From Acaryochloris marina MBIC11017 (GTDB taxonomy: Bacteria; Cyanobacteriota; Cyanobacteriia; Thermosynechococcales; Thermosynechococcaceae), in the NCBI RefSeq assembly GCF_000018105.1, contig NC_009925.1:510001-542000 (forward strand): a stretch of DNA of 32,000 bases, in the 5' to 3' direction. A program made the translations under genes and the position numbers. The notes beneath the pieces were generated by a model. That model worked only from the letters and a program-made list of their open reading frames with translations, was not told the DNA's origin and did not search any database. The stretch's first letter is position 1. Every line of letters starts with the position of its first letter. Below are positions 3,291 to 31,964 of the stretch, piece after piece.

Positions 3291-3297
3291 GCTAGGC

Positions 3298-5358: not shown

Positions 5359-5455
5359 TGGTGTTCAGACCTTCAGAATACCAAGATCCATGCTTCAAAG
5401 GCGTTGTTTCAGGATTTTGTCTGCCCCATTACCTCATCTCAACGGATGAGAGATC

Positions 5456-7265: not shown

Positions 7266-7267
7266 TT

Positions 7268-8416
7268 ATACCAAATCCGACTTACTAACCCCCGAAACAT
7301 TTCATCTGTCAAGCTGGCCACCAATGGTAATGAGTTAGAGCTTTAATGTCCGATTGCATTGTCATTAAGGTTCGACAGCGCTGCTCGAGAACATCTTCGA
7401 GGTCATCCAGGGTCTCAAAACACTGATTAGCCAGTGGCTCGTCCGCTAGCCGCCACAACCGTTCAGCTGGCTGTAGCTCTGGAGAATAGGGGGGTAAAAT
7501 CTTCAGATGAATGCCAGGTGGCACCACCCGATTCTTACAGGTATGCCATCCGGCTCCATCCAGAACGAGAAGAATCTGTTTGTGCTTTCCCGCTCCAACT
7601 TGCTGAGCAAAGCTTTGTAGGGCTTGATTAAACCATTCTCCATTGACCCGAGGTAGAATGAACCATTCGGTATCGCCGGTTGCGGGATGAACGAATCCGT
7701 ATAGATAGGTCCATTCATAGCGATGGTCCACCTCAGCAATTGGACGCTGCCCCACAGGCGCCCAAATCTTTCGAATAATGGGTTTAAGGCCTAATCGGTG
7801 TTCATCAAAAGACCAAATTTCGACCTGAGCATCACGATAGCATCGCTCTAATTCTGCTTTGTATTCAGGAAGTTTTTTTAAAGGCGGCTTGGGCCTCCGG
7901 TTCACCTTTACGATGATGAGGACGTGGGCATTGCAGGGACTGCTCCAATCGCTTGAGATAGTCCCAACCCCGTTGGGGCCAAACCTTATCGACTCCTGTC
8001 ATCTGAGCGATGACCTGGGCTACTTTGGGTCCGTTCCATAGACCACCGTCGGCGGGTGGTGTTTGTAGACGAGTCAACAATTGTGCACATTGGTCTTGAG
8101 TGAGAAGACTGCGAGATTGATGAGGTCGCTTATCTTTGCGTCGGTTGTGTAACCCATGGGCGCCATTGTGGTTATACTCCCTGACGATTTCTCGAGCGTA
8201 ATCGTAGTTGAGACCCACCACTTGAGCTGCGTGAGTCAGGGTTGTTTGCTCACTGACGAGCCATAGTAGATGCCAGCGGCGCGATTCTACTGGGTCTTTG
8301 CTGGCTCGATAATGAGACTTCAGCTCGTCAGGCGAAAAATGAGGTTCGAGATATAGTTTTCTTGGCATTCTCTAATAATGCATCATATCGGGGTTATATA
8401 AATCGGATTTGGTATT
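7268..8416 (-). mobile_element. IS630-family insertion sequence inserted in the 3' end of the IS4 transposase gene
   Basis: The imperfect terminal IRs are ATACCAAATCCGACTTAC-TAACCCCCGA (7268 onward) and the reverse complement of 8416 backward, ATACCAAATCCGATTTATATAACCCCGA. The first 13 bp are identical. The size of ~1.15 kb fits IS630. A TA lies at the right flank (8416-8417). The left flank is obscured by the IS701 insertion, so the boundaries are good to about 2 bp. Confidence 0.7.
7309..8368 (-). CDS. IS630-family transposase in two overlapping frames: an HTH part (7865-8368) and a DDE part (7309-7905), joined at an A7 run
   Basis: ORF1 (167 aa) is the helix-turn-helix half and ends ...AAFKKTS*. 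ORF2 carries the DDE half (EIWSFDEHRLGL..., LLVLDGAGWHT..., YSPELQPAERLW). The frames overlap at TTTAAAAAAACTT on the minus strand (T-run 7873-7879 on +). Joining them gives a ~350-aa product, typical of IS630. Confidence 0.8.
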
Positions 8417-9769
8417 AGCTTTGAGAGCAGAGCGAGGTTGTCGCATTCGCGGGAAAGATTTGGGTCTGCGTTTGACGACTCTCGGTTCGTGCCGATTCGG
8501 TCGAGAGGGTAATAGATCGGCTGCCATGGTCTCAAGTAGATGAGTAAACAACCGCTTTCTGGTCGCACGGTTGGCTGTCGCCAACAAAGCAAGCATCTGA
8601 TTGAAGTGTTGTCGTGCTCCTTGCACAGACAGTTGAGTTCTAGCATTATCTGCTAGCGGTGCCGCAAGTTCCATGAGACTTCTGAGTAGGTTATAGCCCA
8701 ACAAATGTACCCAAATGTCCTTGCGCACCATATCCGGAGTTTTGGCACTGAGCATCTCCATTTTTAAGGTGGTTTTGAGATGGCGCAGATTGACTTCCGC
8801 CACTGGCCAACGCCAGCCATACAAGCGAGTCAGTTGCCCAGCGCTGTAGCGTTGAGCATCCAGCAGCGTCGTCACCACAATAATGTGCTGGTCGCGAAAG
8901 CCCTTAAGGGATAAGCGCAAACACACCTCTCTAACGACCAATGTTTGAGGAATCAGGGCAAAATCTTGCTCACTCATGTGCTCAGGCCGTTGGGCTGGCT
9001 TATGCCATGTCACCTGATGATCACCAATGCCATGCTTGTTGCCTTTGCGGAAATCAGTCTTGCGAGCATGATGTTTACGCAACACTCCATCAGCCCTGTG
9101 TTGTTGAATGATGGCTAGATCAACATAGCTGCCATAAGCTTGGTCCGCCATGACCACATCACCGACCTCAAGGTCTTGATAGAGCAAACGACTCATGACA
9201 ATTTCACTGGTGTCCCAGGAGGCAATACAAGCTGACGCCACTGCACCGGTAACCAAACAGAAGAACACTACCAAGCGAGCGATGGGAAAACCACAGCCTG
9301 CTGTTTGATTGCCATGTTGTGGATATGATGCTTGGTTGGCCGCACTATCAGCCATCAACACGGTGGTTCCGTCGTAGACCTTGACGGGCCGACCACACCA
9401 GAGGTGCTCTGGGGAGAGGGGTTGCGCTAAGCACTCAGCGCTTTCGGGAATTAAACGTTGCAACAGTGACTCTGGAAAGCGACTTCTGGCTTTGCTGTAG
9501 GCTCCGGTATCAGATGAGGGCGGTTGGATGCCAGCCGCTGTGAGCCAAGTCGTGATGCATTTGACTGTGTTACGAAGGCTTTTATCGGCTGATAGCACTT
9601 GGTAAAGCATGGCCCACAGCGTAACGATGGGGCTATATATCCGGTTGCGATAGGAGAATGCTTCTTCTTTCAGGAGTTCCTCTAACCTTGAGGCTGGAAG
9701 GATATCTGTCCACGGTAAACCCAGGCTTTGGGAAAATTGCTGCTTGAGAATTTCGGCTGACTCAGACAT
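8372..9769 (-). CDS. IS4-family DDE transposase; the last ~13 codons are encoded by the inserted IS630 end
   Basis: The track ORF begins at a TTG at 9820 and the first ATG (MSESAEILKQQF...) is at 9769. The layout is IS4-like (VYDGTTVLMADS..., VVMADQAYGSY..., YGWRWPVAEVNLRHLKTTL). The C-terminal NTKSDLYNPDMMHY is translated from the IS630 inverted repeat. Confidence 0.8.
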   Translation of the reverse strand: MSESAEILKQQFSQSLGLPWTDILPASRLEELLKEEAFSYRNRIYSPIVTLWAMLYQVLSADKSLRNTVKCITTWLTAAGIQPPSSDTGAYSKARSRFPESLLQRLIPESAECLAQPLSPEHLWCGRPVKVYDGTTVLMADSAANQASYPQHGNQTAGCGFPIARLVVFFCLVTGAVASACIASWDTSEIVMSRLLYQDLEVGDVVMADQAYGSYVDLAIIQQHRADGVLRKHHARKTDFRKGNKHGIGDHQVTWHKPAQRPEHMSEQDFALIPQTLVVREVCLRLSLKGFRDQHIIVVTTLLDAQRYSAGQLTRLYGWRWPVAEVNLRHLKTTLKMEMLSAKTPDMVRKDIWVHLLGYNLLRSLMELAAPLADNARTQLSVQGARQHFNQMLALLATANRATRKRLFTHLLETMAADLLPSRPNRHEPRVVKRRPKSFPRMRQPRSALKANTKSDLYNPDMMHY

Positions 9770-10305
9770 AGTGAAAGGCAGAAGTTTATGGCGTGCAAGT
9801 CTTGATCCTATATCTATCAAGACTTGTAGCCTTTTCCTGACTTCTTAAGTCAGTGCCATTGATTCTTAAATAGCTCTCACGGCTAACGTTATTCAGGGCA
9901 GATATTGCTTTCCGGATTTTTTGGTGTGTCTACCAAAGAATTTTAGGTTGCAGCCTAGATAAGAATAGAGACTTCAACTTACCCCAATATCGGGGGGTAT
10001 GAGGGCTAAGTGTGGGTGGTCAGTAACTAAGGCTAATTCAAGTTCCAGGAAGGAAAGCTGAAACAAAAATTCTTGTATACCCGGGCTTCTGGTAACACTC
10101 TTGTTTCTCGTGAATTTCTAGTGCTTTTGAATGACTTCCTGTGAAATTAAATAGTCTTGGGAACTAACTGGGTTTAACCCAAAAAAATCACTAAGCTTAG
10201 TGAAGAACCAGCTCAGTGAAATTTTTGTTTATTGCATAAGTCTCTTAGGATATTCTCTAAAGAAACTTAAATTTTTTGTGAGATCAACCCAAAAGCCTAT
10301 TAAGG

Positions 10306-10689
10306 CTAGTTCCATACAGTTACTTTTTTGGGATCCTGAAACTCAGGAATATTGATTAAAAGTTCCACTTCATTTAGAGGATTTCCAAGTTCATAGATCG
10401 AGTTCTTCGTTGTGACATAAACACGACCTTTTTCAGAAAAATACCCTGTGACGCTTGAGGTATTGATCTTGACACCCTGGGTATATTTCTCATGATTATG
10501 AATGCGACCTTTAATGATGACTCTGCCGTTTTTACATAAGCCTACCCATGACTCAATTACTGGAACCCCCTTAAAGTCATACTTTGTAACCTTTCGACCT
10601 TCAGAGGAATGATCGAGAAAAAAACCAGTGATATCATCAACGGTAACCATGGGGATCGAGGGGAAAACGAAAGGGGACAACAAATACAT
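10306..10689 (-). CDS. Hypothetical protein (127 aa; alternative ATG at 10650 gives MVTVDDITGFF...)
   Basis: The ORF starts at an ATG and sits in a visibly AT-rich, HIP1-free islet between IS elements. I recognise no family. The composition looks beta-rich (KGRIHNHEKYTQGVKINTSSVTGYFSEKGRVYVTTKNSIYELG). Confidence 0.4.
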   Translation of the reverse strand: MYLLSPFVFPSIPMVTVDDITGFFLDHSSEGRKVTKYDFKGVPVIESWVGLCKNGRVIIKGRIHNHEKYTQGVKINTSSVTGYFSEKGRVYVTTKNSIYELGNPLNEVELLINIPEFQDPKKVTVWN

Positions 10690-10839
10690 GTATGAGTTGT
10701 GTATAACTTAATTGTATTGCCCTTGTTTTTTGCTCCCTTCAGTAATATTCCTGATCTTTTAAATATTTTTCCCAGGATAGCCACGTATTGAATTGACTAA
10801 ATATGTGGATTTTTATTTTCTGGTCACATAATGAGCTTA

Positions 10840-10907
10840 ATATTGAATTCAATATGTGATCTCAGCCCAGGCAAGAATCAGAATTCTAATTCTTGCCTGG
10901 GCTGAGA
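10840..10907. repeat. Two adjacent palindromes, each centred on GAATTC
   Basis: 10840-10855 is a perfect 16-bp palindrome, ATATTGAATTCAATAT. 10860-10907 is a 48-bp palindrome with 19-bp perfect arms (TCTCAGCCCAGGCAAGAAT and ATTCTTGCCTGGGCTGAGA). Its only mismatch is c10879 against a10888. I verified it base by base. Confidence 0.9.
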
Positions 10908-12548
10908 CCTATATTTTCTTACTAAAAAATCCAAGAAAATGTGCTTAGGTTGAACTGAGCTTATGTAGGGTTTGCTGAGAAAGTAAATTGAGCAAATTCC
11001 ATGCATCAAATCGTACAAGCAACCCATTTGTGACGGCCAGAGCCATATCCTTTGACTGGCCCTAGCAAAGCCCCAAGGAAGTCCTGACAGCTCCATAACG
11101 CTTTCCAAAACCAGCAATCCCACCCCAAAAATGAACGATAAAAAGTGGCTGAGCCACCGCTCCAGATTCATGACCAAGAACGTGATAGCAATCGCACTGG
11201 CAGCCGTATCCGCTAACTTCGCCATCACTCGATTCAAGCCAAACCGTCGCTTGGCCTGCCCAAACTTACCCTCAATCTGGACCCTCACCTTTTCATCCTC
11301 ACACGCTTGTTGCTTGAGTTGGGTCTGTACTTGTGGGTCTTGTTGAGGTCTTCCTAACGGCGGTCCACTCAAGCGAATCCCCCGAGCTTTACACCATCGT
11401 CGATTAGCCCGAGTCCGATAGATTTGGTCAGCATGGACTGAGAAAGGATAATGGCCAAAGCGACGACGAAAGGCTTCCACTTGATGTTGAAGATGCTGGG
11501 ATTCATTGAACGCATCCCAACTCAAGCGCTCCAGAAACACACATCCACGCACACAACTGAGGGATAGCTTGGCTCCAAACTCAACGGGTGTTCCAGCTTT
11601 GCCTCGGACCATCGGTCGGACATGAGGCTGACTCATACTGACAATCCGGTCGTCCACTCGACGTACTGACTGTTGATACATCCATTCTTGCTGTCGAAAG
11701 ACTTCATGAATCACCAGCAACAGACGGTACTGCCGCCGGGACAATTGGGATAGGGAAGCCCCCAATGTTATCAACCCATCAATATGGGCTAGATTGCGAC
11801 GCACATAGCCCAACTGCTGACGAATCCCTTTACGAATCAGCTTGCGGCTCGGTTGACGTTTTTTGGCAATGGCCAGATAGGCTTTGCGGGCCTTCTGGCG
11901 GTAGGTGCGAGGTTTGCACTTGAGGGACAGCATGACTTGAGCATATAAAGCATCGAGGATGGCTTCGCTTGCTTTGCGGGCATCATTGAGCAAATCCAAG
12001 TCTGTCGGATAGCGAATATCGGCTGGTGCACAGGTCGTATCTATCAACAATTGGCCCTGGTTGGGAGGGGCAGGAGGCTCATCTTCATCATCGTCAGAGG
12101 GAGGAGATGACTCAGGGGACATCGCCACAGGAGACCCCTCGGATGCCAGCACAGAGTCCACGACTGCGTCATTGACTTGAGCTAGCAGCTCTAGATTCAA
12201 CCGTTGGCGAAAGTGAACCAGCATGGAGGCATCAAACGGAGCACTCTCTCGATATTCACTAAACCCCAGAAAGTACTGCAAGTAGGGGTTCTCTCGAATC
12301 TGTTCTACGGTCTCTGCGTCGGATATACCCAGTTTCTCTTTGATGATTAAGGTCCCTAAGGCCACACGAAAGGGTTTGGCAGGTGCCCCCATGGTCTGAC
12401 TGAATTGGTCTGCATATTCTGACTCAAAGCTCTCCCAAGGAATCAACTCGGCTAGTTTGACCCAGCGATTCTCTCCTGAAAGTTTCCCTCCAAAGGGCAA
12501 GTAGAAGTTCTCAAAGGACAGTTGACCGGGGGATGGACGGCGATACAT
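10878..12548 (-). CDS. IS5/IS1182-family transposase (556-aa ORF; the last ~28 codons read past the putative IR)
   Basis: ATG at 12548. The N-terminal InsH-type region is QLSFENFYLPFGGKLSGENRWVKLAELIPWE and NPYLQYFLGF. An acidic/Pro linker follows, then the DDE region (LLIDTTCAPADIRYPTDLDLL, HADQIYRTRANRRWCKARGIRLSGPPLGRP, QIEGKFGQAKRRFGL). Confidence 0.8.
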   Translation of the reverse strand: MYRRPSPGQLSFENFYLPFGGKLSGENRWVKLAELIPWESFESEYADQFSQTMGAPAKPFRVALGTLIIKEKLGISDAETVEQIRENPYLQYFLGFSEYRESAPFDASMLVHFRQRLNLELLAQVNDAVVDSVLASEGSPVAMSPESSPPSDDDEDEPPAPPNQGQLLIDTTCAPADIRYPTDLDLLNDARKASEAILDALYAQVMLSLKCKPRTYRQKARKAYLAIAKKRQPSRKLIRKGIRQQLGYVRRNLAHIDGLITLGASLSQLSRRQYRLLLVIHEVFRQQEWMYQQSVRRVDDRIVSMSQPHVRPMVRGKAGTPVEFGAKLSLSCVRGCVFLERLSWDAFNESQHLQHQVEAFRRRFGHYPFSVHADQIYRTRANRRWCKARGIRLSGPPLGRPQQDPQVQTQLKQQACEDEKVRVQIEGKFGQAKRRFGLNRVMAKLADTAASAIAITFLVMNLERWLSHFLSFIFGVGLLVLESVMELSGLPWGFARASQRIWLWPSQMGCLYDLMHGICSIYFLSKPYISSVQPKHIFLDFLVRKYRSQPRQELEF

Positions 12549-12708: not shown

Positions 12709-13761
12709 TTAATAAACCGTGACTGGAGTAAAGCAAACTTTATTGCTTTCAGGACTGCTGATTTGCCCCACCTTTGCGGTGACTGTATAGCAATGTTGTT
12801 CTCCAGCCAATCCTTGCATTTCGGTTGAGTTACGACTGTCTGAACCAGTGTAAATTTTGGACTTCTGGGACGTGGAAGGAATTTCCTGATTCACTTCAAA
12901 AGTGACGCCACTTAGAGCACCGGACCACTGCCAATTTAACTCGATCTGGTTGGTGCCAGGTTGTTGAGTAGCGGTTAAAACAGGGCTAGGTTGGCTAGTT
13001 CCTGTGCGGGACGTTGCAGTACTGCTCAATCGATGAATTTCTACATCGGAGATTTGGCTACGCATAATTAGATTAACTTGACTGCCCTGTACACAGGCTT
13101 GAAACCCCCCTTTCCCCATCATTACCCCTGGTGTAGGACAGGTGGGGGTGTTATCGATTTCCGCTGCGATCGCATCCACTAAGGTATCGCTAGCAACGGG
13201 GTTACTACAGGGATTGATACTGCCATCACTGGCGGGAACACGACCATACCGGTGAATGGAGTTGGGGGCAAGCCAGTCTTGGGTACTGGGGCGGATGTCA
13301 TACACGACCTGATCATAGGTCGCGGGTTGAGGTGGAGGTGAACCTGCATTAGGACCTCCAGCAGGACAAATATCTGGAACCTGGGAGGTGATGGGAATTT
13401 CTAAGTAAAGTACGGGGTTACTCCAGTCCGAAGCTTGTAAACCTGCACTGGTCAGCATACTAGACATGGAAGAGGCATCCGTTGCCTTCATCATTTGGGA
13501 TTGGTTAATACGTTTCGCCATCCTAATTTCATTGCTAATGAAATCGAAAGCTCGGCTTAAGTCGTGGCGTCAAGCCGCAATCGCTTCAGTCCGGTTGTTG
13601 GCTCGGGTTGCTGCAATCACTCCAAGTCCTGCGACACTGACGACCAGGCTAGTAATGACAGCTGCAACCAAGAGTTCCACCAAAGTAAACCCATGGTGAG
13701 TGGATAAAGTCTTTTCAGATGGCAGCTGATTCAAACCATCTCTCCCTAAATGGTGCTTCAT
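12709..13761 (-). pseudogene. PilW/GspJ-like pseudopilin with a C-terminal FN3-like domain, interrupted by one in-frame TGA (13570-13572)
   Basis: The ATG at 13761-13759 overlaps the upstream stop as ATGA. The prepilin leader and methylation motif read MKHHLGRDGLNQLPSEKTLSTHHG/FTLVELLVAAVITSLVV, with Glu at +5. Track ORFs 13570-13788 and 12709-13521 are in the same frame, separated only by the TGA: ...NNRTEAIAA*RHDLSRAFDFISNEIRMAKRINQ. Confidence 0.8.
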
Positions 13762-14648
13762 TGCTCCTCCCAGTTCTCGGCAGTGCAACGGCCAGAGTCC
13801 GTAATGGCAGCTGGACTCATATCGCCTTGATAGGTACCAATACGGGTTAACCCTAAAGTATTGGAAATCGCAATACAGCGTTTAGTGGCTTTGGAATCAT
13901 CAGGACTGTAAAAGATAATCTTGCCACTAGGATCTGTTGGTGTTTGTTGAGCACTAACAATCGCAAATTCAGGGTTGCCTAAAACACCATATTTGATCGG
14001 GATGCTGGCTGATGGCCCAGGACTAGAGGGCGAATCGTGTCCACCATTTCCTGACTCATCTTTATCTTTGTTTTTGCAAGTCCCTAAACCTAATCCTTTT
14101 TCGGTATTACCTTTACATTTAGCGATAACCTGAACGATCACCCCCGCTTTAGATGCTTTTGCTTCAGGAACAGGAGCCATAGCGATTTGGGAGATAGTTT
14201 CACCATCGCTCAGTCCTAGAGAGGGTTGCACATCTGAACCAATTAGAACGGGCTGCCCTTCATTGGTACGGGCTGTGTTTGAGTTTGGATCTGTCAAATT
14301 AGTTGCGATCGCAACATCCGTTTCCAAGGTGCGATCACCCGATTTGAGACAAGGTCCAGTTATTTTCCCTTCCACAAAATTGAGGGTTAGGGTGCAAATT
14401 TTATTGCCTTTAATGGCTTCTCGTTGAGTTTCATTCAATGCTGTGCGGACTTCCGCCATTGTCTGCTTAACTTTGGCTCGGTTCATGGTCGCCATAATAC
14501 TCGGGGCTGAGGCAGTGGCAGCGATGCCGATAATGGCACCAATGACCATTTTTTCAGCCAGAGTAAACCCCGTCTCTGAGGGTGAAGGTCTGAGTTTAAT
14601 CAATGGATACAAGCGGAGCATGGCAATTTGCAGCAGAAGAATGAACAT
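13758..14648 (-). CDS. GspH/FimT-like pseudopilin (296 aa; alternative ATG at 14621)
   Basis: The prepilin-type motif is SETG/FTLAEKMVIGAIIGIAATASAP, with Glu at +5. The region that follows, MATMNRAKVKQTMAEVRTALNETQREAIKGNK, has a GspH/FimT-like layout. There is an internal low-complexity stretch, KNKDKDESGNGGHDSPSSPGPSAS. Confidence 0.75.
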   Translation of the reverse strand: MFILLLQIAMLRLYPLIKLRPSPSETGFTLAEKMVIGAIIGIAATASAPSIMATMNRAKVKQTMAEVRTALNETQREAIKGNKICTLTLNFVEGKITGPCLKSGDRTLETDVAIATNLTDPNSNTARTNEGQPVLIGSDVQPSLGLSDGETISQIAMAPVPEAKASKAGVIVQVIAKCKGNTEKGLGLGTCKNKDKDESGNGGHDSPSSPGPSASIPIKYGVLGNPEFAIVSAQQTPTDPSGKIIFYSPDDSKATKRCIAISNTLGLTRIGTYQGDMSPAAITDSGRCTAENWEEQ

Positions 14649-14744
14649 AAATAAAAGAGGGCTTTCAGCTTCAGGGGGGACAAACTTCCCATCCCCTATG
14701 AGACTTGCCCATACTTTGACAAGAAATGGATTAAGGCATCTTGG

Positions 14745-16214
14745 TCACAACCTCACCCGTTGCCAACTTTTCACATAGCCAAACTTATTCTTGGGAGTAA
14801 TGCCAATACCACTGACCACATCTGCCAAGCTGGATACATCGTTGGGCACTCTAATGCCGGACGTACTGCCATTGGTCGTGATGATGTCAAAATCTTCAGA
14901 AGGTACGCTGCGGGTATGGGGGGTGATGTTAATCGAACTGACGACATCCTCTACCCAAGCGACGCCATCAAAATTAGTATTTCCACTACTGGGACAGCCG
15001 TCTCCTGTCCCTTGTAAATGGAGATCATTCTCCGTGTTATAAACAAATGCGGTATCAATACAGGATTGATCGTAGAGTTCGATGGCGAGATTTGGACCAA
15101 CTGCATTGTGAACAATAATCCTTAGATCCCCCACTCGTGGAAGTTGCCCATCCGTGCGAATGTTGCGCAGTTGAGCATTGCCTCGCAATTCAAAGGATTT
15201 AGTTACGTAAAGGTAAACTGGACCATCTGTCGTGTCCACATTCACCACATTCGTACCATCCAGTTCCAGTTCTTCAATATGGTAAGGGCTGTCTGCAGCA
15301 GTGAGAGTGGTACTACTCCTGACGCTGCCTAAACTCCTCACAGTTGAGGGTAAATCGACAGAAAGTGTTTGTGTAACCTTGCAACCTACGATGTTACCGG
15401 CAATTAAATCCTCAGCAGGACCATCGGTAGCAGTTGAGTAAATGGCATTGAGATAAGCAGAACGATCAACATCATTCGGTGCTGACTTATCCGTCAGGCT
15501 GCTGTCCACAGAATAGGCCGGGTCGAAGTAAAGATTGGCATGTTGACCAATAAGGGTGCGTCCCCGAATGTAAGCACCTTCCATTGCCAGAACACCAGGA
15601 AAATTCTCTACTTCGGACTGTATAGACAGGGTAGATAGCACATAAGATACTCGTTCTCCCTGCTTACCTTCAATAAGCAGGGTCCCCGTTTGTTCCGTTG
15701 GATTATACCGATAGGCTTTGAGTTGGTATTGACCGCCAGAACCCATGTTTCCTGAAGTAGTAACACTAGGAGTGATGGTCGTCCCAGTATCCTCACACGG
15801 AGATGAAGTGCTGCCTGTATATCCCGTCCATTCGTCAATAGCCGTGGTTTCTTCATCCCCAGAATTGAGAATGCCATCAGGACCAAGATAGGTGGTTCCA
15901 GTTTTGGGATTGATCGTATCGTAGCTTCGAGTCAATAAAATTCGATTATTCGGCTGAGTCATTTGGGACAGCATGCGAGCCATGCCCCCTTCCGACACGG
16001 CTAAACTAGCCCCAGCTTCTTTGCGGCTAAATGCGGAGGTGCGATCGCTTTGGGCAATCATGATTGTCGACAACCCTAAAATGACCATCACAAAACCCAG
16101 TCCTAGGGCTAGGGGCAAGGCAAATCCCTTATTAGGTTCATTTCCCAGTCTGTTCAGAGCTAGATAGGATGGCTGCCCTAATCGAGATAGAGAGGCTGAC
16201 AACTTTGGGCTCAT
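14745..16214 (-). CDS. Large PilX-N-type pilus-associated protein, paralog B (489 aa from the ATG at 16214; the track ORF starts at a TTG at 16259)
   Basis: The N-terminal hydrophobic segment NKGFALPLALGLGFVMVILGLSTIMIAQSDR resembles a pilin leader but lacks Glu+5, as in the PilX N-terminal domain. A GGGGG Shine-Dalgarno-like run lies 8 nt upstream of the ATG at 16214. It is a clear paralog of 16856-18406 and shares the C-terminal WQRVRL. Confidence 0.8.
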   Translation of the reverse strand: MSPKLSASLSRLGQPSYLALNRLGNEPNKGFALPLALGLGFVMVILGLSTIMIAQSDRTSAFSRKEAGASLAVSEGGMARMLSQMTQPNNRILLTRSYDTINPKTGTTYLGPDGILNSGDEETTAIDEWTGYTGSTSSPCEDTGTTITPSVTTSGNMGSGGQYQLKAYRYNPTEQTGTLLIEGKQGERVSYVLSTLSIQSEVENFPGVLAMEGAYIRGRTLIGQHANLYFDPAYSVDSSLTDKSAPNDVDRSAYLNAIYSTATDGPAEDLIAGNIVGCKVTQTLSVDLPSTVRSLGSVRSSTTLTAADSPYHIEELELDGTNVVNVDTTDGPVYLYVTKSFELRGNAQLRNIRTDGQLPRVGDLRIIVHNAVGPNLAIELYDQSCIDTAFVYNTENDLHLQGTGDGCPSSGNTNFDGVAWVEDVVSSINITPHTRSVPSEDFDIITTNGSTSGIRVPNDVSSLADVVSGIGITPKNKFGYVKSWQRVRL

Positions 16215-16397
16215 TGATTTACCCCCTGTCCACGATCGGTCAGAGGGATGAAAAAGCAACTGCCATTGGAGTGGCTAAGCCAATCATTGAGCATAGAAAA
16301 ATCAGAAGGGGTTAGATGCCAATGGAGAACACATGGGCAGGACAGTGTTACAGGACAACACTGTTCATATCCTGGCTTTCATGGCCTGTAGCTGGCG

Positions 16398-16476
16398 ACA
16401 GAGATTATACGGAATTCCCTCTCAAGAATAAGTATCGTTGCCAGGGGAATTCCGTAATTTTGAGGAGAATCTCTGT
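16398..16476. other. Nested imperfect hairpin in the spacer between the two paralogs
   Basis: The outer stem pairs ACAGAGATT (16398-16406) with AATCTCTGT (16468-16476). The inner stem pairs ACGGAATTCCC (16409-16419) with GGGAATTCCGT (16445-16455). The function is unknown. Confidence 0.5.
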
Positions 16477-16855
16477 TAGATTAGGCCTAAGCTTTTTCTT
16501 CACATCTAGATTAGGGTAAGGGCCTACAATCGCATCCGTTGCCACTGCAAAGCCCTACTAAACCGATAGCGCCCTAGATAATCAACCTATTTCAAACGGT
16601 CGATTAAACGCTGACCTCTAAAGATTTCGCAATGCCAGAGGTAACGTTGGAGGTAATAACAGCATTGTAGGGAGCGCCAACTTTGCCAATGAAGGGACAA
16701 GACAAGGCCCCGCTCTGAACATTTAGAATATTGTGAATCTACCCTTGAACCTTCAAGGGTTTGTAAATATCGACGCTATGCGTGGAGAAGCGTGACAGAA
16801 AAGTACCTATTCTTCATTCCACCTCATACCCATAAAATCCAAATAATCGTCCACC

Positions 16856-18406
16856 TTATAGCCGAACGCGTTGCCAGTTCTGGACTCCGCCAAACCGATA
16901 ACGAGCTGGCCACTCCACATATTTCAGTAAATCCATCAGACTGGACACATCTTTTGGCACCGCGATTCCAGCTGTGATTCTTGAATTGGCCAAGGGATAA
17001 TAGGTGTTTTTGGGTTGATCATAGTTGGTGCCATTGAAGCCATTGAGAAAGTTCACATCCCGGTGAACTTCCTGATCCTTGAGGGCCAAGATGGCTTCCA
17101 TCCATAACACCCCCTCAACATTCGTATTTCGTCCACCTGGACAACCTGGACCGCTGGTCAGCAACCTTAATTCGTCAATCGGGAACCAGAGAAAGGCATT
17201 TTGGATGCAGCTACGGTCATAGAGGTTCACTTGACTATTTCCCCTAGCCAGAATGCGCAGATCGCCGACCTGAGGGGGTTGATCGTCTGTCCGAACATTA
17301 AGGATTTTGGCATTATCTCGCAGGGTAATGGCTAGCTCTGGATCGGTCCCCCCATACACAACATCAATTTGGACTGGACCTCCCGTGGTATCAACGGTCA
17401 AGACGTCATCATTACCTAAATCAATACTTTCGACGCGATAGAGGGTTGGGGACATGCCTCCTACCCCTCTCAGGGTCGTACTGGAAGTGATACGACCGAA
17501 GTTGGTTCCTTGAATCGTCGTCGGTAGCTTAGGGGGTAAGTTACAGGCAAAGATTTTTCCTTCTACCGTATCGATGGGACTGCCATCCGCCTCAAAATCT
17601 TCCTCATTGGTCGACCAGATGGCATTCAAATAATCATTCCGACTTAGATCTCCTGGGGCGGCACTGTTGGTTAGGGCATCATTGGCTGAGCCGTCAGGGT
17701 TGTAGTAGATATTCCCCTTGCTTCCTAGAACCTCTCGACCTCTGAGCGCCAAGGTCCCCGTCTTAAAAGCTCCATTCGTATTGCGGGAGACGATAATACC
17801 GGGAAAATTGTCTAAATCTGGGGTTACATTAATTGTGATCACGATTCCCGTGGTCTGATCATTGGTGGTTGCTTCTACGAATAATGTGCCTTGCTGCCGT
17901 TTGGGATCATAACGATAGGCCTTCAGAGTGTAGGTGCCATTCACACCGATAGGACCGGAAAACTTAAAATCAGGAGCCCCCCAGTTCATCTGCTGGTGGC
18001 AGGGTTGATTACTGGGGTCATAGCTGGTCCATTCATCAATGGGCTCTGTCTCTTCATCTCCACTATTGAAGATTCCATCTGAGCCTAAATAGGTTTTACC
18101 CGTTTGGGGATTAATTGTGTCGTAATTACGGTTGAGCAAAATGGCGTTGTTGGGGACTGTAAGCTGGGCTAAAGTCCTTGCCATTCCTCCTTCTGCGGTC
18201 GATAAGCTGGCACCCGATTCTTTCCGTTGCCAAGACGTTATGCGATCGCTTTGGGCGGTCATCATCATCGTGAGTCCCAGCACTACCATCACAAAGCCCA
18301 AACCCAAAGCCAGTGGTAAAGCAAAGCCGGCATCCCTGCGGTTGGTCGATTGTCTCTGCTGTAACCACCAACGAATCACTGTTGCGGTAAAGGGATTTAG
18401 GGGCAT
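16856..18406 (-). CDS. Large PilX-N-type pilus-associated protein, paralog A (516 aa)
   Basis: The ATG at 18406 is preceded by GAGGAGGA 7 nt upstream. The N-terminal segment is RRDAGFALPLALGLGFVMVVLGLTMMMTAQSDR. It shares blocks with paralog B (DTINPxTGxTYLGxDGIxNSGDEET..IDEWT, LKAYRY, DYLNAI, VGDLRI, LYDxSCI, PxDVSSL, WQRVRL). Confidence 0.85.
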   Translation of the reverse strand: MPLNPFTATVIRWWLQQRQSTNRRDAGFALPLALGLGFVMVVLGLTMMMTAQSDRITSWQRKESGASLSTAEGGMARTLAQLTVPNNAILLNRNYDTINPQTGKTYLGSDGIFNSGDEETEPIDEWTSYDPSNQPCHQQMNWGAPDFKFSGPIGVNGTYTLKAYRYDPKRQQGTLFVEATTNDQTTGIVITINVTPDLDNFPGIIVSRNTNGAFKTGTLALRGREVLGSKGNIYYNPDGSANDALTNSAAPGDLSRNDYLNAIWSTNEEDFEADGSPIDTVEGKIFACNLPPKLPTTIQGTNFGRITSSTTLRGVGGMSPTLYRVESIDLGNDDVLTVDTTGGPVQIDVVYGGTDPELAITLRDNAKILNVRTDDQPPQVGDLRILARGNSQVNLYDRSCIQNAFLWFPIDELRLLTSGPGCPGGRNTNVEGVLWMEAILALKDQEVHRDVNFLNGFNGTNYDQPKNTYYPLANSRITAGIAVPKDVSSLMDLLKYVEWPARYRFGGVQNWQRVRL

Positions 18407-25122: not shown

Positions 25123-26811
25123 TCACCAGGTCACTTTATTCCGTAGCTGTTCCAGCAATTTCGGCCCGATGCCAGGTACTTGATCAAAATCTGCAAGGGA
25201 GGTAAAAAGACGTTCTTGCCTCACCTCGATTATTCGGGCCGCCAACTTCGGCCCCACACCGGGTAATGCTTCCAGCTCTTGTTGACTCGCTGTATTCAAA
25301 TTTACGAGGGAGCTATTAACCGGAGCGGTTTGCTCCTTTCCTAGCCAGACGGGTTGGGGAGTGCCCCTGACATGGAGCTGTAAATCGCCACATTGGCGTT
25401 GATGATCTTGGGCTTTGTTGTGGAGAAAGGTCGGAATGCCGAGACGACTACTGGCATATAACCGCTCAAATTCCCGATGATAGTGATCGGCAATTTGAGG
25501 ATGTTCAATCACCAGTAAGGTTTCATCATTGCGACGATTGGCAGCATCTGACCAATTGTGAGATCCCACAATCACAATCCGGCCATCCACAATGCCAAAT
25601 TTATGGTGCAGCACATCGCCTTTGGGGAGTTGAGGTGTCCCCACGGTTTGCAAGGGTTGAGACCAAGGTCGATTTTGGGGTTCAGCCTGACATGTTAACG
25701 TTCCACTGCGAGAGGAACTGAGGGCCACCCCTAACATATCGAGAACTTCGCTATAGCTTTGATAGGCAAACTGAGGGTCACCCAATACCCGAATTTTTAC
25801 CCCTTGATGGTCTTCCACGGCTAGCTGATCCACTAGGGGTTGCTCTGAAAAGACAAATAGCGCCAACGCAATATCTTGTGTCGCTTTCGCTAAGGTTTGG
25901 CGAATCAGACCGTTGGTACTGCGAGACCAGGGCGTAGAGACGGATGTGGGAGAAAATTGCACTTGCACTTTGGCATCACCCACCTTAAGAGTTTGGGTTG
26001 GACGCCAGGGCTTGTTCACCCCAAATTTGCTATCGGTTGCTCGACCGGGACCATCTCCCCACATCGCCTTAAATTCCTCGGTAAAGAGTTGAGCGACAGC
26101 TGGGTTCTTAAGGACGACTAGAGAATTGGCATTTCCTCGACTATCTGGCTGATCTAAATCGCCGAGCAAGCCAGACAACGTAAAGTTGGCCGTTGTCACA
26201 AGGATGGTCTGCCCATCAATGACCACAAATTTATGGTGCATCAGTCCACTGCCAGCAGAACCATCGGCCGTATCGTCTAGCCAGGGGATATCCGCCTGAC
26301 GCAGTACCTCTAGGGCATCGTTATCATTGATTTCAGACGAACTCAGCTGGCCATCTTGATCTTGGTCGATCAGTTGAAAGTTGGCTTGGTATCGGTCTTT
26401 TTGCCGTGGATCCATCCGGGCCACTTCTTGGGGCGTAAAGCTACTCCAAGGTCGGCTGTAGGTGTTTTCTAAGACCACTCGGACCTGAACACCCGCTTGT
26501 TTGCGATCTCGAAGGGCCTGGGCAATCCGGGGCGATCGCAATTCCTGTATCGCTACATCCACTGTGGATTGTGCGGCTTGGATATTCTCGACAATAATCG
26601 ACTCTAAATCATCCCCTGGGCGGGTGATTTGTCGATAAGGATCCGTAAAAGAATTAGCCAGACTCTGGTTCATATACACCTGAATCTGGCTATGTTGTGG
26701 GAGAGGTTCGATGGATTTGAATTGCGGTTGCGATCGCTGCCAACGATTAACCCCAATCCCCAGAGCACCCAGTAGGACAAGGGAAGCTAATCCCAATTGC
26801 AGTCGCTGCAT
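25123..26811 (-). CDS. Phospholipase D-family (2 x HKD) putative nuclease with an EF-hand loop and a C-terminal ComEA-type helix-hairpin-helix domain
   Basis: The first ATG is at 26811. The N-terminal signal or anchor is LGLASLVLLGALGIGV. HKD motif 1 is HHKFVVIDGQTILVTTANFT and HKD motif 2 is HHKFGIVDGRIVIVGSHNWSDAANRRNDE. A canonical 12-residue EF-hand loop, DQDQDGQLSSSE, lies at 26332-26367. The C-terminus VNLNTASQQELEALPGVGPKLAARIIEVRQ...VPGIGPKLLEQL is ComEA-like. Confidence 0.85.
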   Translation of the reverse strand: MQRLQLGLASLVLLGALGIGVNRWQRSQPQFKSIEPLPQHSQIQVYMNQSLANSFTDPYRQITRPGDDLESIIVENIQAAQSTVDVAIQELRSPRIAQALRDRKQAGVQVRVVLENTYSRPWSSFTPQEVARMDPRQKDRYQANFQLIDQDQDGQLSSSEINDNDALEVLRQADIPWLDDTADGSAGSGLMHHKFVVIDGQTILVTTANFTLSGLLGDLDQPDSRGNANSLVVLKNPAVAQLFTEEFKAMWGDGPGRATDSKFGVNKPWRPTQTLKVGDAKVQVQFSPTSVSTPWSRSTNGLIRQTLAKATQDIALALFVFSEQPLVDQLAVEDHQGVKIRVLGDPQFAYQSYSEVLDMLGVALSSSRSGTLTCQAEPQNRPWSQPLQTVGTPQLPKGDVLHHKFGIVDGRIVIVGSHNWSDAANRRNDETLLVIEHPQIADHYHREFERLYASSRLGIPTFLHNKAQDHQRQCGDLQLHVRGTPQPVWLGKEQTAPVNSSLVNLNTASQQELEALPGVGPKLAARIIEVRQERLFTSLADFDQVPGIGPKLLEQLRNKVTW

Positions 26812-26822
26812 CAATAGAGAAG

Positions 26823-27807: not shown

Positions 27808-30255
27808 ATGGTTCAAAAATTCCTTCAATTGGTTCGTAACCGCTACCGATGGATCGTCCTCAGTCTGGTCACGCTATGTTTCAGCTGGGGCGTACTCCAG
27901 CTAACAATGGGGCAGCCCCTTCGGGCAGAGGTCAAATCTTCTTCACCCCCTCAACTCTCTGCCGCACAGATCTCTAACGCTGAAGAAGGCTATCGTCCAG
28001 TGGGGGAGTGGGTCGGAAGACTGATACTACCACCCGCAGATGGCACGGACTGGGTTTGGTTTGAAGTGCACCATAGTCCCAATCCCAAGTTTGTGGGGCA
28101 AACTGTGCGGTTGCAGTGGCAGGATCATCCTGATGTCCAAGCCCGCATCAAACGGGTACAGCAGGATATCAACCTCTCTGCAGAAGCACATCAAAGCTTG
28201 AAGCGGGGTAATATTCACCCGCAACGATTAGATGGACGGCGGCAGGTGGGACCATTGCAGTCCTTAGCAGGAGCAAGGCCCACAGATGACCTGATCGTAA
28301 GTTTAAAGAAGGTGCAAGCCGTTAATGCCCCTAGTCCTTACCTAGAAATTGCAGTAGATCCGCTACAGGTCCCTGGATTCGACTATGGACTCGTCAAAAT
28401 CCTCGGTCCAGTCTCCACGTCAGAATCCGTTCCCAAAGACTGTCCTGGATCACCTCCTTGTCCGAGCGAGTTGACTCGGGTGCGTCACTACAATCCCCTG
28501 ACTCAACGATTTAATGGTCCTGAAGAAAGGGTACACATTCGTCAGGATCAGCCCAATTCAGCTGGAGTCTTTCAGTCCACTCCTAGGAAATTAGCCGACT
28601 CTCCGGCCGGACGTTCAGGCTGGTATATCTATGGTTCGAAGAATATGGAAGGGGTGTTTGAGGTGAATGCGATCGCACCTCGGTCTCTGTTCCAACTCCA
28701 GCCTGATCATCACTTCTCTACCATGGGGGCAGGACTGCACTACTTCAAACGCAAAGTTTGGCAGCAAACTGTTCAACATAAGGGCAAACTCCAACGAGCC
28801 CTGGTTGATAGCCAACATCGTAGACAGAAAAAAGCCGTGGATCAGTGGCAGGAAGGTGATCAAGCCTTAGTTGTCCATCTGTTTGGCGGTATTGGTGGTA
28901 ACAAAGCTGAGCCCCAGGCAGTTATCGGAACGGTCACGGGGCATTTTGGCTACGGTATCGCTACGGTCATTAAAGATCCCTTTACGGGGGAACGTCAGTT
29001 TGAGATCGAGTACCAACAGGTTTACGCTCACAACCCAGAGGGAATTGTGGCCGGACCGACCCATTGGTCCGAATATATGGGCCATCTTAACCGGGGATGG
29101 TTGGGAAGTCGGCCCGTATTGGATGTGTTGGTAAAGTCTGCGGCCCTGACGCAGCCCTATAAATTTGGCGAGATCAGTCTAGATCCCTTGGCTGAGCTTA
29201 AAACCCAGCTACAACTAATGGCAGCACGCTATCGAATTGGTGATGGTACAGGTTCCGCTTTAGTTACCCCGGCAAAATCCTGTGTTCAAGATTCCAGTCA
29301 AGCGGTTTACCAAACCATTAAGCGTATTCAATATCAGGTGCAAATGTCCCCAGCCATTCAAACTTGGTTGTCAGAACATCCTCACGCCCCTCAAACCCTT
29401 CGGTTTCAAGAATTAACGACTTTAGGGAATGCCCTGGAGAAAGAACTAGTCCCTCTGGGCATTGTCCGCAGTGATTGGCAGCAAAATGCCCAGGTTGCGG
29501 CAGGTATCTCAACACCTGGGACATTTCGCCAATCAGACGATTTCTTGGCTCAGGTTCTGAGCTGGCGAACCCTGATTCCTCGGGTTGCCCAAGATCAAAT
29601 CATTCGTATTTTTCTGAAGCAAGGTACCCCGCTTTGGTTTCTCAACACGAATCAGGTTGGAGGTTGGGATGCGGATATCAGACCCCTCGCCCCCACAGAG
29701 TTATTTGGGAAATGGCCAGTCGTTTCCTTTTCCTTTTCTCGGTTGGTGGAAGCAACCACAACGGTTCCAACTCCGATGGGATGGCTCGTTTCAGGAGGGA
29801 TTTTAGGAGGCTATGGTCTCTTTGCTGTCGTTTGGGGCCGAAAAGTGGGGTTTCTGACCCCACCCAAATGGGCTGCTTATTCCCCATCTGTGCAAATAAG
29901 ACTCTGGATCGGCACTTTGATCATGCCAGCCCTAGTCGAAGAATTATTATTTCGCTGCCTCCTCATTCCCCACCCCCAAGAAGGTGTGTGGTGGGTGACG
30001 CTGCTGCTTTGGTCAGGATTTAGCTTAATCCTCTTTGTGCTTTATCATCCCCTCAATGCCCGTACCCTCTACAGAGCAGGCGATCCAACCTTCTTTGATC
30101 TCAGATTTTTAACTTTAGCCACTGTGTTGGGGATAGTCTGTACTGGCACCTATTTGTTCACAGGTTCAATCTGGCCAGGAACTATTTTGCACTGGCTTGC
30201 TGTTGCAATTTGGTTGCTGTATTTAGGCGGGCAAGAACGTCTGAGCAAAGTTTAG
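27808..30255 (+). CDS. CPBP-family (CAAX/Abi-type) intramembrane protease with a ~600-aa N-terminal domain
   Basis: The N-terminal TM is WIVLSLVTLCFSWGVLQL, followed by a large soluble region. The C-terminal multi-TM domain has the CPBP motifs EELLFRCLL (EExxxR), FVLYHPLN and GTILHWLAV. Confidence 0.8.
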   Translation: MVQKFLQLVRNRYRWIVLSLVTLCFSWGVLQLTMGQPLRAEVKSSSPPQLSAAQISNAEEGYRPVGEWVGRLILPPADGTDWVWFEVHHSPNPKFVGQTVRLQWQDHPDVQARIKRVQQDINLSAEAHQSLKRGNIHPQRLDGRRQVGPLQSLAGARPTDDLIVSLKKVQAVNAPSPYLEIAVDPLQVPGFDYGLVKILGPVSTSESVPKDCPGSPPCPSELTRVRHYNPLTQRFNGPEERVHIRQDQPNSAGVFQSTPRKLADSPAGRSGWYIYGSKNMEGVFEVNAIAPRSLFQLQPDHHFSTMGAGLHYFKRKVWQQTVQHKGKLQRALVDSQHRRQKKAVDQWQEGDQALVVHLFGGIGGNKAEPQAVIGTVTGHFGYGIATVIKDPFTGERQFEIEYQQVYAHNPEGIVAGPTHWSEYMGHLNRGWLGSRPVLDVLVKSAALTQPYKFGEISLDPLAELKTQLQLMAARYRIGDGTGSALVTPAKSCVQDSSQAVYQTIKRIQYQVQMSPAIQTWLSEHPHAPQTLRFQELTTLGNALEKELVPLGIVRSDWQQNAQVAAGISTPGTFRQSDDFLAQVLSWRTLIPRVAQDQIIRIFLKQGTPLWFLNTNQVGGWDADIRPLAPTELFGKWPVVSFSFSRLVEATTTVPTPMGWLVSGGILGGYGLFAVVWGRKVGFLTPPKWAAYSPSVQIRLWIGTLIMPALVEELLFRCLLIPHPQEGVWWVTLLLWSGFSLILFVLYHPLNARTLYRAGDPTFFDLRFLTLATVLGIVCTGTYLFTGSIWPGTILHWLAVAIWLLYLGGQERLSKV

Positions 30256-30273: not shown

Positions 30274-31254
30274 TTAGTCATAACACCAGGTATCAAAGGA
30301 TCGGTTGGGTGGTGCCTGATTTGAACGCACAGGCCGATGGAAGATGGATTTGGTATTCGTTGACTTCTTGCGAGTGGCTAATGCTGAGGACTTTTGCGTT
30401 TTTCTAGGAGTTGCAATGGTTTGCTGCTCAGTCAATTCTTTTTGTAACCGGGCATTCTCTTTTGCTAATCGCACTGCATCCTGGGTGGTTTGCTCCAGTT
30501 TCCCCTTAATCGCATCGATTTGATTGTTTGATTTCTGCAATGCAGTCAGGGCTGTTTTTTGTTCCGCTAACTGTGCCTCTAATTGAGCCACTTTCTTCTG
30601 TAAAGAGGTCTCTTTGGTTTGAGCTGCCTTTAAATCTTTGGTTAGGGCACTCACCTTCACTTCTAAATCAGCGTTGATGGATTGAGTGCTGGCAGTAGGG
30701 CTGTTTGTTGAGGCAGTTTTTGCTGCTGCTTTCTTCGCAGTAGAGGTGGCAGGTTTAGCTTTCTTTGCGGTTGATGGGGGCTTTGCAGCTGTTTTCCGAC
30801 TAGAGGAGCGGCTAGACGTTGCCTTTTTGGCAGGAGAAGATTTTGCGGTTGATTTTTTAGCAGCGGGCGCAGCAGTTTTGGTCTTGGCAGCTGACTTCTT
30901 CGCTGCGGTTGTAGTAGCCTTTGTTGTCGAAGCTGACTTCTTCGCTGCCGGTGCCGCAGTCTTAGTCGTCGAAGCTGAATTAGCCGTTGATTTTTTGGCT
31001 GTAGCCTTAGCAGCGGGTGCAGCAGTTTTAGTCGTCCCGGTCGTCTTCTTTGCCGTAGTTTTTTTCGCAGTTGATTTTGCCGTGCTTTTTTTGGCTGTCG
31101 TCGTCTTTTTAGCCGTAGTTTTTTTAGCTGTTGTGGCTTTCTTTTGGGCCGACGACGCAGCTGGTTTAGCACCTACATCCTCTTTTTGATCAGGGGCTGC
31201 AGTTTTAGTTGCTTCTTCCCGTAATAAATCTGACAAACTCTTCTTCGTAGCCAT
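30274..31254 (-). CDS. Lys/Ala/Thr-repeat, coiled-coil ParA-partner candidate (326 aa from the ATG; McdB-like)
   Basis: The ATG at 31254-31252 overlaps the ParA stop as TAATG. The track ORF starts at a TTG at 31266. The N-terminus is [14 protein letters not shown]. About 150 aa of AKKTT and TKTAAPAAKK repeats follow. A heptad region then runs from LEVKVSALTKDLKAAQ to ARLQKELTEQQ. The C-terminus is ...NRSFDTWCYD. Confidence 0.7.
   Translation of the reverse strand: MATKKSLSDLLREEATKTAAPDQKEDVGAKPAASSAQKKATTAKKTTAKKTTTAKKSTAKSTAKKTTAKKTTGTTKTAAPAAKATAKKSTANSASTTKTAAPAAKKSASTTKATTTAAKKSAAKTKTAAPAAKKSTAKSSPAKKATSSRSSSRKTAAKPPSTAKKAKPATSTAKKAAAKTASTNSPTASTQSINADLEVKVSALTKDLKAAQTKETSLQKKVAQLEAQLAEQKTALTALQKSNNQIDAIKGKLEQTTQDAVRLAKENARLQKELTEQQTIATPRKTQKSSALATRKKSTNTKSIFHRPVRSNQAPPNRSFDTWCYD
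30709..31167 (-). repeat. In-frame low-complexity coding repeats (AKKTT, and TKTAAPAAKK three times)
   Basis: The repeats are visible at the DNA level, for example GCTGACTTCTTCGCTGC twice near 30889 and 30933. The compositional bias keeps three frames open here (track ORFs 30274-31266, 30663-31172 and 30686-31189). Confidence 0.8.
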
Positions 31255-31964
31255 TAACTTTCCCAATCCCGCTTAATTTCATCAACAACGCGGCAATAAT
31301 CTGCTTTTGCCTCTTTACTATATTTCCCTTTCCATTGTGTAATTGGCTGTCCTTCTAAAGCTGCCCGTTCATGGGCCTTATAGCTCCGTACAAAGGCATG
31401 AAAAGCCGGAATGCCTAACTCCATCAATGTGTTTTGAGCATCTAATGCTTCTCGCAAACTTCGAGGGTCGACCCGTGTTAGTAATACCCGATGAGCCACA
31501 CCGGATGGTTTGACCAATGTCCGCACCGTTTCAATGAGAACAGCTATTTCCATTGGGGCAGGCGGCGTAGGAAGCACTAAATAGTCAACCACAGGAATGA
31601 CCATTTTCAAAATCTCAGATTCCAGTCCTGGTGGTGTATCGACGACCACGAGCTCTTGTTTACTGGATCGGCGCAGTGCTTTCAATTCTTTGGCGCTAGT
31701 TCCAGACTGGACTTGAAATTTCAGAGAATTGTTATCACGCTGGGTCCACCAGGTAGCGGATCCTTGTGGATCAGCATCAATCAGGAGAACTTGATGAGCT
31801 TCTGCAAATACGGCTGTGAGATTGACAGCTGTGGTGGTTTTACCGACACCACCTTTGCCATTAAGGACTGCTACAACCTTAGTTTTTGAAGATTTAGAAG
31901 GCAACTTGGGCACCACTAATGATTGCCAATGGTAAGCAGGAGGCTCCGATTTTGCAACTTGCAA
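31254..31964 (-). CDS. ParA/MinD-family P-loop ATPase (start codon uncertain; TTG at 31964)
   Basis: The deviant Walker A with the signature lysine reads [20 protein letters not shown]. Walker A' reads [10 protein letters not shown] and Walker B reads LVVVDTPP. It is translationally coupled to the downstream repeat protein. Confidence 0.85.

Follow-up and report, generated by a model that had tools for sequence, protein, structure and literature searches.

A probable chromosomal Type 2 McdAB carboxysome-positioning pair with a polycationic linker in Acaryochloris marina

Which cargo is served by a chromosomal ParA-type ATPase whose partner lacks a ParB fold? We asked this of two minus-strand genes that together span positions 30274-31964 of a 32,000-nucleotide stretch of Acaryochloris marina MBIC11017 DNA (hereafter, the window). 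A preliminary description, made from the letters alone, had likened them to mcdA and mcdB; it needed small corrections (as to the strand, the degeneracy of the repeats, and the merely moderate Gln enrichment), and the observation was confirmed. We conclude that the two genes are probably a chromosomal Type 2 McdAB carboxysome-positioning pair of Acaryochloris, an assignment drawn from sequence. The McdAB system itself is known, widespread, and ordinary: Type 2 McdAB has been reported in about 75-86% of beta-cyanobacterial genomes, and a family assignment alone adds little. What is unusual is a polycationic linker within the partner. In the papers searched, we found no description of a lysine-rich McdB or of the Acaryochloris pair, and Acaryochloris is not named in the text of MacCready 2020 (PMC7182216).

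The partner and its carboxysome-linked relatives

We fetched 80 metagenome loci with A1, an alignment of 12 ATPase homologues, added genome, plasmid, and Logan loci, and extracted the open reading frame (ORF) 3' of each ATPase gene; profile searches were run at Z = 6000. The partners downstream of this ATPase subfamily fell into two classes. The Trp-tailed class (64 rows, some of them duplicates) has a tryptophan 3-5 residues from the C-terminus, in endings such as IGW[VFM]D, MWLLD, NTWLL(D), IGSWLG, and FDTWCYD, together with a KKxLSDLLREE-type N-terminus and a coiled coil. The second class comprises 23 rows without a near-terminal Trp. Most of these are of a type found on Thermus plasmids or of one of several types from cyanobacterial plasmids; the remainder consists of one ParB-like partner (L092), an McdB homologue that has lost the Trp (L030), and a small number of ORFs that were mis-called or are unrelated.

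The window partner matched the first class at the sequence level. A hidden Markov model (HMM) of 52 non-Acaryochloris Trp-tailed partners recovered its residues 187-326 with an E-value of 1.7e-19, and its coiled coil alone with 2.6e-15. An HMM built from only the five partners linked to bacterial microcompartment (BMC) or ccmK genes matched the coiled coil and tail with an E-value of 1.8e-12, in support of the McdA/McdB likeness proposed earlier. The other long coiled-coil ORF of the window (DUF3084, 1830-3290), used as a control, gave an E-value of 1.2; therefore, the match is not a generic coiled-coil effect. BMC genes, located by tblastn with a CcmK probe and confirmed as BMC domains by Pfam, occurred within 4 kb of five Trp-tailed loci. 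Four of these (L041, L062, L072, and L075) adjoin BMC gene pairs, and the fifth, metagenome contig L094, carries at 754-6953 a ccmK-ccmK-ccmL-ccmM-ccmN-mcdA-mcdB-ccmK-ccmK-ccmO cluster (the ccmM, ccmN, and ccmO assignments are by likeness).

An exhaustive phmmer search with residues 187-326 against 1.84 billion representatives returned 20 proteins, of which 19 were inspected (P0140, a 1567-aa coiled-coil protein, was left out); all 18 sequences read carry the C-terminal Trp, and 11 of them share the tail F[DE][TSI]WC[YF]D. The Trp, whose conservation the preliminary description had made a test of its proposal, was thus kept in orthologues; of the full-length homologues found, only L030 has no Trp among its final 3-5 residues. 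This homologue (3295-3774) matches the McdB profile with an E-value of 3e-15 and ends in SFNKNIHLF. A search with the full-length partner against a 5.8-billion-protein index gave one spurious match of 4% coverage and was uninformative because low-complexity words swamped the candidates.

Published criteria for Type 2 McdB (PMC7182216) comprise an ORF right after mcdA, a positive-then-negative N-terminus, disorder, a biased polar composition, a central Gln-rich coiled coil, and a Trp within the last four residues; those for Type 2 McdA comprise a deviant Walker A with the signature Lys (KGGxxGK[ST]), two extra Thr residues (GKTTT), a double Trp (WW) by Walker A', Phe, Glu, and Pro after the WW, and a length of 202-253 aa. 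Read from sequence or model, the window pair shares with Type 2 McdAB all of the features of the partner, including a Gln-containing central coiled coil and mcdB directly 3' of mcdA, and all of those of the ATPase but the Glu and Pro, in addition to the profile homology to ccm-linked members. The 326-aa partner also falls within the published Type 2 McdB range of 132-394 aa. The experimentally characterized Type 1 McdAB of S. elongatus PCC 7942 presumably works alike, with a ParA-type ATPase on the nucleoid, an adaptor on the carboxysome, and a Trp near the C-terminus. However, Type 1 McdA has Ser for the signature Lys and a long internal insertion, and in Type 1 McdB the coiled coil lies at the C-terminus and the N-terminal charges run in the reverse order (PMC7182216); none of these features was seen in the window pair.

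Within the partner (Table 1), the short basic N-terminus noted previously proved to be a basic-then-acidic peptide. It is conserved as [KR][KR]xL[SA]DL[LV]xEE in nearly all full-length partners 3' of the ParA subfamily (L094 diverges), and partners adjoining ccm genes carry the same peptide. AlphaFold2 places a short helix at residues 7-17, and a short mixed segment lies between this peptide and the linker. By likeness to ParB-type partners (PMC7182216, PMC11321042), we infer that the peptide is the element that contacts McdA and stimulates its ATPase.

The central coiled coil was modeled as one helix of approximately 96 residues (residues 186-281), with a predicted local distance difference test (pLDDT) score of 93-98. 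The fraction of Leu, Ile, Val, or Met at heptad positions a and d (residues 196-284) was 0.52 versus 0.31 ± 0.04 in shuffled sequences, and none of 2000 shuffles reached the observed value. The heptads of the "Q-rich heptad region" were therefore borne out, whereas its Gln content was only moderate (13%, compared with 5% of the whole partner). Over most of residues 18-185, block means of pLDDT lay between 43 and 53, and the tail scored about 51-63; approximately 70% of the partner is predicted to be disordered. The tail, disordered and basic, does end in FDTWCYD as described, and Trp323 is the fourth residue from the end. The SFDTWCYD ending is a putative carboxysome-shell binding motif, as a role of the Trp and carboxysome binding by an acidic Trp tail have been shown for other McdBs (PMC11321042).

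The reading frame is genuine, as orthologues of 254-326 aa keep both the N-terminal peptide and the C-terminal tail in-frame. Pfam and NCBIfam contained no significant family for the partner, and the PDB search returned only weak coiled-coil noise. A ParB helix-turn-helix or ribbon-helix-helix was sought in these three sources and no DNA-binding domain was found, which agrees with the earlier statement that the partner has no ParB fold.

By analogy with the S. elongatus and H. neapolitanus systems (PMC7182216, PMC11321042), McdA-ATP dimers would coat the nucleoid non-specifically, and McdB would attach to the shell of the carboxysome by the acidic C-terminal tail that bears its Trp, with the coiled coil supplying multivalency or avidity. 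The N-terminal basic/acidic peptide of McdB would then contact McdA and stimulate its ATPase, releasing McdA from the nucleoid. Local clearing of McdA would let carboxysomes ratchet toward higher McdA, which would result in even spacing.

Several observations weigh against the carboxysome assignment. No BMC or ccm gene was found within 10 kb, either in the window or in the Acaryochloris loci; clustering with ccm genes or with ccmK3/K4 applies to about 31% of published McdAB pairs. The pair adjoins a CcmR/NdhR-like regulator rather than ccm genes, and its tail, WC[YF]D in form, is of another subtype than the usual IGWVD and MWLLD. Neither the Glu nor the Pro that follows the WW in Type 2 McdA is conserved: the stretch that reads ETDP in the family reads SGTSA here (QSGTSA), with the expected Phe present as F83. 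The net charge of the partner (+50) is far beyond the family norm, and its linker carries +41 in 158 aa, for a partner isoelectric point (pI) of 10.55 against a family median near 5.4. Finally, small-plasmid ParAs of Thermus are 61-63% identical to the ATPase and those of Nostoc 53%, with the same GKTTT and WW, and a neighbor-joining tree gives no supported split of the cargo classes.

A rival reading is that the pair positions another cargo, for example, polyphosphate granules or some other protein assembly, with a likeness to McdB that would be architectural only. Cargo other than DNA is positioned by many ParA-like ATPases (PMC7182216), the criteria published for McdB concern composition for the most part, and, with no ccm genes nearby, a ppx gene lies approximately 3 kb upstream. 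Nevertheless, the homology to partners adjoining or inside ccm loci is at the sequence level, the acidic Trp tail that binds carboxysomes in other McdBs (PMC11321042) is conserved, and the neighboring gene encodes a regulator of the CO2-concentrating mechanism (CCM) type; we thus regard a different cargo as unlikely.

Table 1. Positions of the mcdAB genes and their elements in the window
Feature	Position	Strand	Basis or remark
mcdA, ParA-type ATPase	31254..31964	-	236 aa from TTG; Pfam CbiA/AAA_31; NCBIfam ParA_partition
Deviant Walker A: signature Lys and two extra Thr (K37-GGVGKT-TT45)	31830..31856	-	Invariant columns in A1
Double Trp W72 W73, after Walker A' DADPQGS	31746..31751	-	Invariant in A1; ATWW
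TAATG overlap	31252..31256	-	mcdA TAA (31256..31254) and mcdB ATG (31254..31252), one base in common
mcdB, 326-aa adaptor	30274..31254	-	HMM homology to Trp-tailed partners, including those adjoining ccmK genes
N-terminal peptide, residues 1-17, basic before acidic	31204..31254	-	Conserved in related partners
Polycationic low-complexity linker, residues 29-186	30697..31170	-	A/K/T/S/P; degenerate 14-aa and 9-11-aa repeats
Central coiled-coil helix, residues 186-281	30412..30699	-	AlphaFold2, heptad test, HMM
Disordered C-terminal tail, ends SFDTWCYD	30277..30411	-	Trp323 codon 30286-30288

The ATPase and its plasmid kin

The upstream ORF encodes a ParA/MinD-class P-loop ATPase (Pfam CbiA, E-value 4e-17, and AAA_31), and the match to NCBIfam ParA_partition (112 bits) lies under the equivalog cut-off. 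The KGGVGKT motif reported for this gene was read directly from the sequence, within NGKGGVGKT at residues 35-43, and the Thr run of GKTTT occupies T43-T45. The start is uncertain: the 236-aa ORF begins at a TTG preceded by AGGAG, and an alternative TTG at codon 21 (31904) would give 216 aa, matching the approximately 216 aa of most homologues. To cyanobacterial homologues of that length, the ATPase aligned without gaps at 61-75% identity. Both lengths fall within the Type 2 McdA range, and the Type 1 internal extension is missing. The TAATG overlap of the two genes was confirmed; such an overlap, or a tiny gap, is seen at most related loci, and the overlap of the mcdA stop with the mcdB start implies translational coupling.

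A tblastn search of the ATPase against 72,556 plasmids found ParAs of Nostoc, Oscillatoria, and Geminocystis plasmids at 48-53% identity in addition to those of Thermus. On average, the window ATPase shared 60.7% identity with non-Acaryochloris ATPases that accompany Trp-tailed partners and 56.3% with members of the plasmid-type clade. In the neighbor-joining tree, the Acaryochloris clade had 98% bootstrap support, monophyly of the plasmid clade 30%, and the grouping of the two 5%; the sister relationship between the Acaryochloris McdA clade and the plasmid-type clade, present in a first tree, was accordingly rejected. Some plasmid ParAs are roughly as close to the window ATPase as other McdAs are, and the assignment therefore rests on the partner. 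Judged by the conserved C-terminal Trp, the lack of a nearby parS-like repeat, and the syntenic chromosomal setting, the sequence-based refutations named in the preliminary description did not succeed.

The small-plasmid systems of Thermus and cyanobacteria (type Ib-like) resemble the window pair in an ATPase of 48-63% identity, GKTTT, WW, a K/R-rich LxDLxxEE peptide, and coupled genes, but their partners lack the coiled coil and Trp tail that the window partner has, and it in turn lacks their C-terminal module (RKExRLR...ITENTLIRVAVDLLL). In plasmid-type partners, the same N-terminal peptide is followed by a conserved terminal module, RKExRLRxDQ...ERITENTLIRVAVDLLL. Examples of these plasmid ParA loci, at 48-63% identity, include L013 2519-3501 (Thermus plasmid pTthSNM1-1c), L014 2513-4028 (Nostoc punctiforme pNPUN03), L047, L061, L067, L078, and L081, among others, and their partners carry a KRxLxDLxxEE N-terminal peptide and a C-terminal module of the form RKExRLRxDQ...ITENTLIRVAVDLLL. 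A resemblance of the module to a ribbon-helix-helix was by eye only; Pfam searches with the whole partner and with the module, and a PDB profile search, were insignificant.

On these sequences, GKTTT and WW, listed as distinctive of Type 2 McdA, do not mark carboxysome systems alone. They are common to plasmid ParAs whose partners have another C-terminal module, and cargo specificity would therefore lie entirely in the C-terminus of the partner. Annotation from McdA alone is thus unsafe. The comparison further suggests that McdB and plasmid adaptors swapped their C-terminal cargo modules while keeping one ATPase-contact peptide in common.

The same kinship could mean that the window ATPase segregates a replicon and that the partner binds a centromere by way of the lysine-rich tract. 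The closest plasmid ParAs (Thermus and Nostoc) do belong to the same ATPase subfamily and have partners with the same N-terminal peptide, and the K/A/T tract resembles in composition the DNA-binding tails of H1-like proteins. However, the window partner has the coiled-coil and Trp-tail profile in place of the plasmid module, and L004 and L022 lack the lysine-rich tract while keeping everything else. The parS-like repeat whose presence would have argued for partition was looked for and not found: neither the 178-bp upstream region nor the downstream side of the operon contains direct or inverted repeat arrays, and repeats occur only inside mcdB. Furthermore, the locus is chromosomal and syntenic, and the 72,556 plasmids yielded no Acaryochloris plasmid match at an E-value below 1e-40. 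We consider partition very improbable.

The polycationic linker

With the pair read as McdAB, the feature that sets it apart is the linker. Its 158 residues comprise A46, K39, T36, S22, P9, and six others, with no acidic and no hydrophobic residue and a net charge of +41, and its pLDDT is below 50. The repeats described beforehand are present (AKKTT four times, AKKST three times, and TKTAAPAAK three times), but they are degenerate and do not form a clean tandem array: at the DNA level, four 42-nt units share 60-79% identity alongside several 27/33-nt units, and Tandem Repeats Finder reported just a 2.1-copy 42-nt array, whereas a gap-free repeat finder recovered wider degenerate families.

The likeness to histone H1 tails held for composition only. 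Like H1 C-terminal tails and bacterial H1-like repeats, the linker is K/A/P/T-rich, acid-free, and disordered; unlike them, it has more Thr and Ser and less Pro, and it is embedded as the linker of an adaptor. No linker-histone or bacterial H1-like family matched the partner in Pfam or NCBIfam. Bacterial H1-like lysine/alanine repeats occur, for example, in the C-terminus of mycobacterial HupB, in AlgP, and in Hc1.

The lysine-rich repeat is as unusual as first thought: net charge, pI, and Lys content (18.4%) make the partner the extreme among the 64 Trp-tailed rows, the medians of which are -4 for net charge, 5.4 for pI, and 219 aa for length. Whole-partner net charge in the sample ranges from about -27 to +50, and the variation is mostly in the linker. 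The two closest relatives (L019 and L020; McdA 97% identical) have partners of 318-319 aa and net +44, whereas the next Acaryochloris-like relatives, L004 (86% McdA identity) and L022 (73%), have partners of 254-267 aa that retain this N-terminus and tail but carry a net charge of only +13 to +14. Beyond the close Acaryochloris group, the most basic representative (P0127, 292 aa) reaches +27. The extreme linker is hence confined to a close Acaryochloris subclade.

Compared part by part with L019, the tail was 90% identical, the N-terminus 82%, the coil 78%, and the linker 61%. Judged from these sequences, the linker is a recent, fast-evolving, lineage-specific expansion of a normally variable spacer, preserved in composition, and not a new architecture; it indicates no different cargo. 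Its most likely effect would be an altered condensate or solubility behavior, or an added weak affinity for polyanions such as DNA. In S. elongatus McdB, N-terminal basic residues are implicated in condensate solubility (PMC11321042), and the natural variants in linker charge could serve to test the role of charge in such solubility.

Another account is neutral drift, in which replication slippage in a tolerant spacer produced the lysine-rich tract with no functional consequence. The degenerate repeat units, the faster evolution of the tract than of its flanks (61% versus 78-90% identity to L019), and the wide variation in linker length and charge across the family are all consistent with this. 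It also fits that contigs L001, L002, and L003 of Acaryochloris metagenome-assembled genomes (MAGs) stop 6-29 bases past the mcdA stop, at or just inside the mcdB start, where we suspect that the lysine-rich repeat breaks short-read assemblies; if so, mcdB would be under-represented in MAG-based surveys. Conversely, the composition is strict, and L019 and L020 have approximately the same length and charge despite 39% sequence change, which suggests selection on composition. We regard neutral drift as less likely than not.

Regulatory neighbor and surroundings of the locus

The gene divergent from mcdA lies beyond the window end and was read in L015, a locus that matched the window exactly wherever the two were compared and that continues past its end. 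This LysR gene (L015 8198-9112, minus strand) encodes a protein with 66% identity over 300 residues to Synechocystis NdhR/CcmR (PDB 5Y2V; PMC11495319). The 178-bp LysR-mcdA intergenic region contains an exact ATAG-N8-CTAT (L015 9169-9184, approximately window 32071-32086), the NdhR consensus (PMC13249358), which is kept in seven of seven Acaryochloris intergenic regions while the N8 spacer and flanks vary. The adjacency of a ccmR-like gene and mcdAB is limited to Acaryochloris. At minimum, the box would fit autoregulation of the LysR regulator gene. We hypothesize that it also controls mcdAB: the NdhR box stands in the shared intergenic region, and mcdAB expression may therefore follow carbon status. 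The conserved box suggests a testable link between carbon sensing and carboxysome positioning. A scan of the locus for sigma-70 promoters and terminators gave nothing above shuffled sequences.

Regulation and linker could be combined in a bolder reading, to which we give a rather low probability: in the A. marina-like subclade, the linker may bind the nucleoid, RNA, or polyphosphate directly and so tether carboxysomes to DNA without McdA-ATP, with mcdAB perhaps under CcmR/NdhR control via ATAG-N8-CTAT. Direct binding to the nucleoid would change the Brownian-ratchet regime, and CcmR/NdhR control would tie carboxysome spacing to carbon status.

The chromosomal setting suspected from the flanking genes is supported by synteny. 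Across Acaryochloris loci, the order is M23 peptidase, dxr, M48 peptidase, ppx, a 226-aa ORF, the divergent LysR gene, and mcdA-mcdB, followed past mcdB by a convergent 815-aa CPBP/Rce1-like protease, a Ysc84 gene, a PLD/HhH nuclease, and hemL. The exact 326-aa partner is present on 11 public contigs, and Acaryochloris MAGs encode proteins that match the ATPase at 86-97% identity. Elsewhere, the window carries chlD, hemL, GGDEF/EAL genes, and several insertion sequence (IS) transposases.

Other features of the window were as follows. The CPBP/Rce1-like gene (27808-30255, plus strand) is convergent with mcdB, and only 18 bp separate their stop codons. In its 815-aa product, the protease domain is C-terminal and follows a large N-terminal domain that has no annotation. 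The nuclease-like protein at 25123-26814 (minus strand) has two PLD domains fused to a ComEA-type helix-hairpin-helix, and its match to DISARM DrmC is weak and below the cut-off. At least four different transposase genes are clustered at 5937-12548 (DDE_5; an IS630-like helix-turn-helix and DDE_3 in two ORFs; DDE_Tnp_1; and DUF772 with DDE_Tnp_1_2), and positions 10001-11000 are low in GC (37%). Three tandem ORFs of 296, 504, and 516 aa at 13758-18406 (minus strand) gave no significant Pfam match, the 504-aa ORF having a sub-threshold match to DUF7305. Their N-termini resemble prepilin or pseudopilin signal-anchor segments (GFTLAEKMV..., GFALPLALGLGFVMV...), the 504- and 516-aa ORFs share the C-terminal ending WQRVRL, and the three may form a minor-pilin-like cluster.

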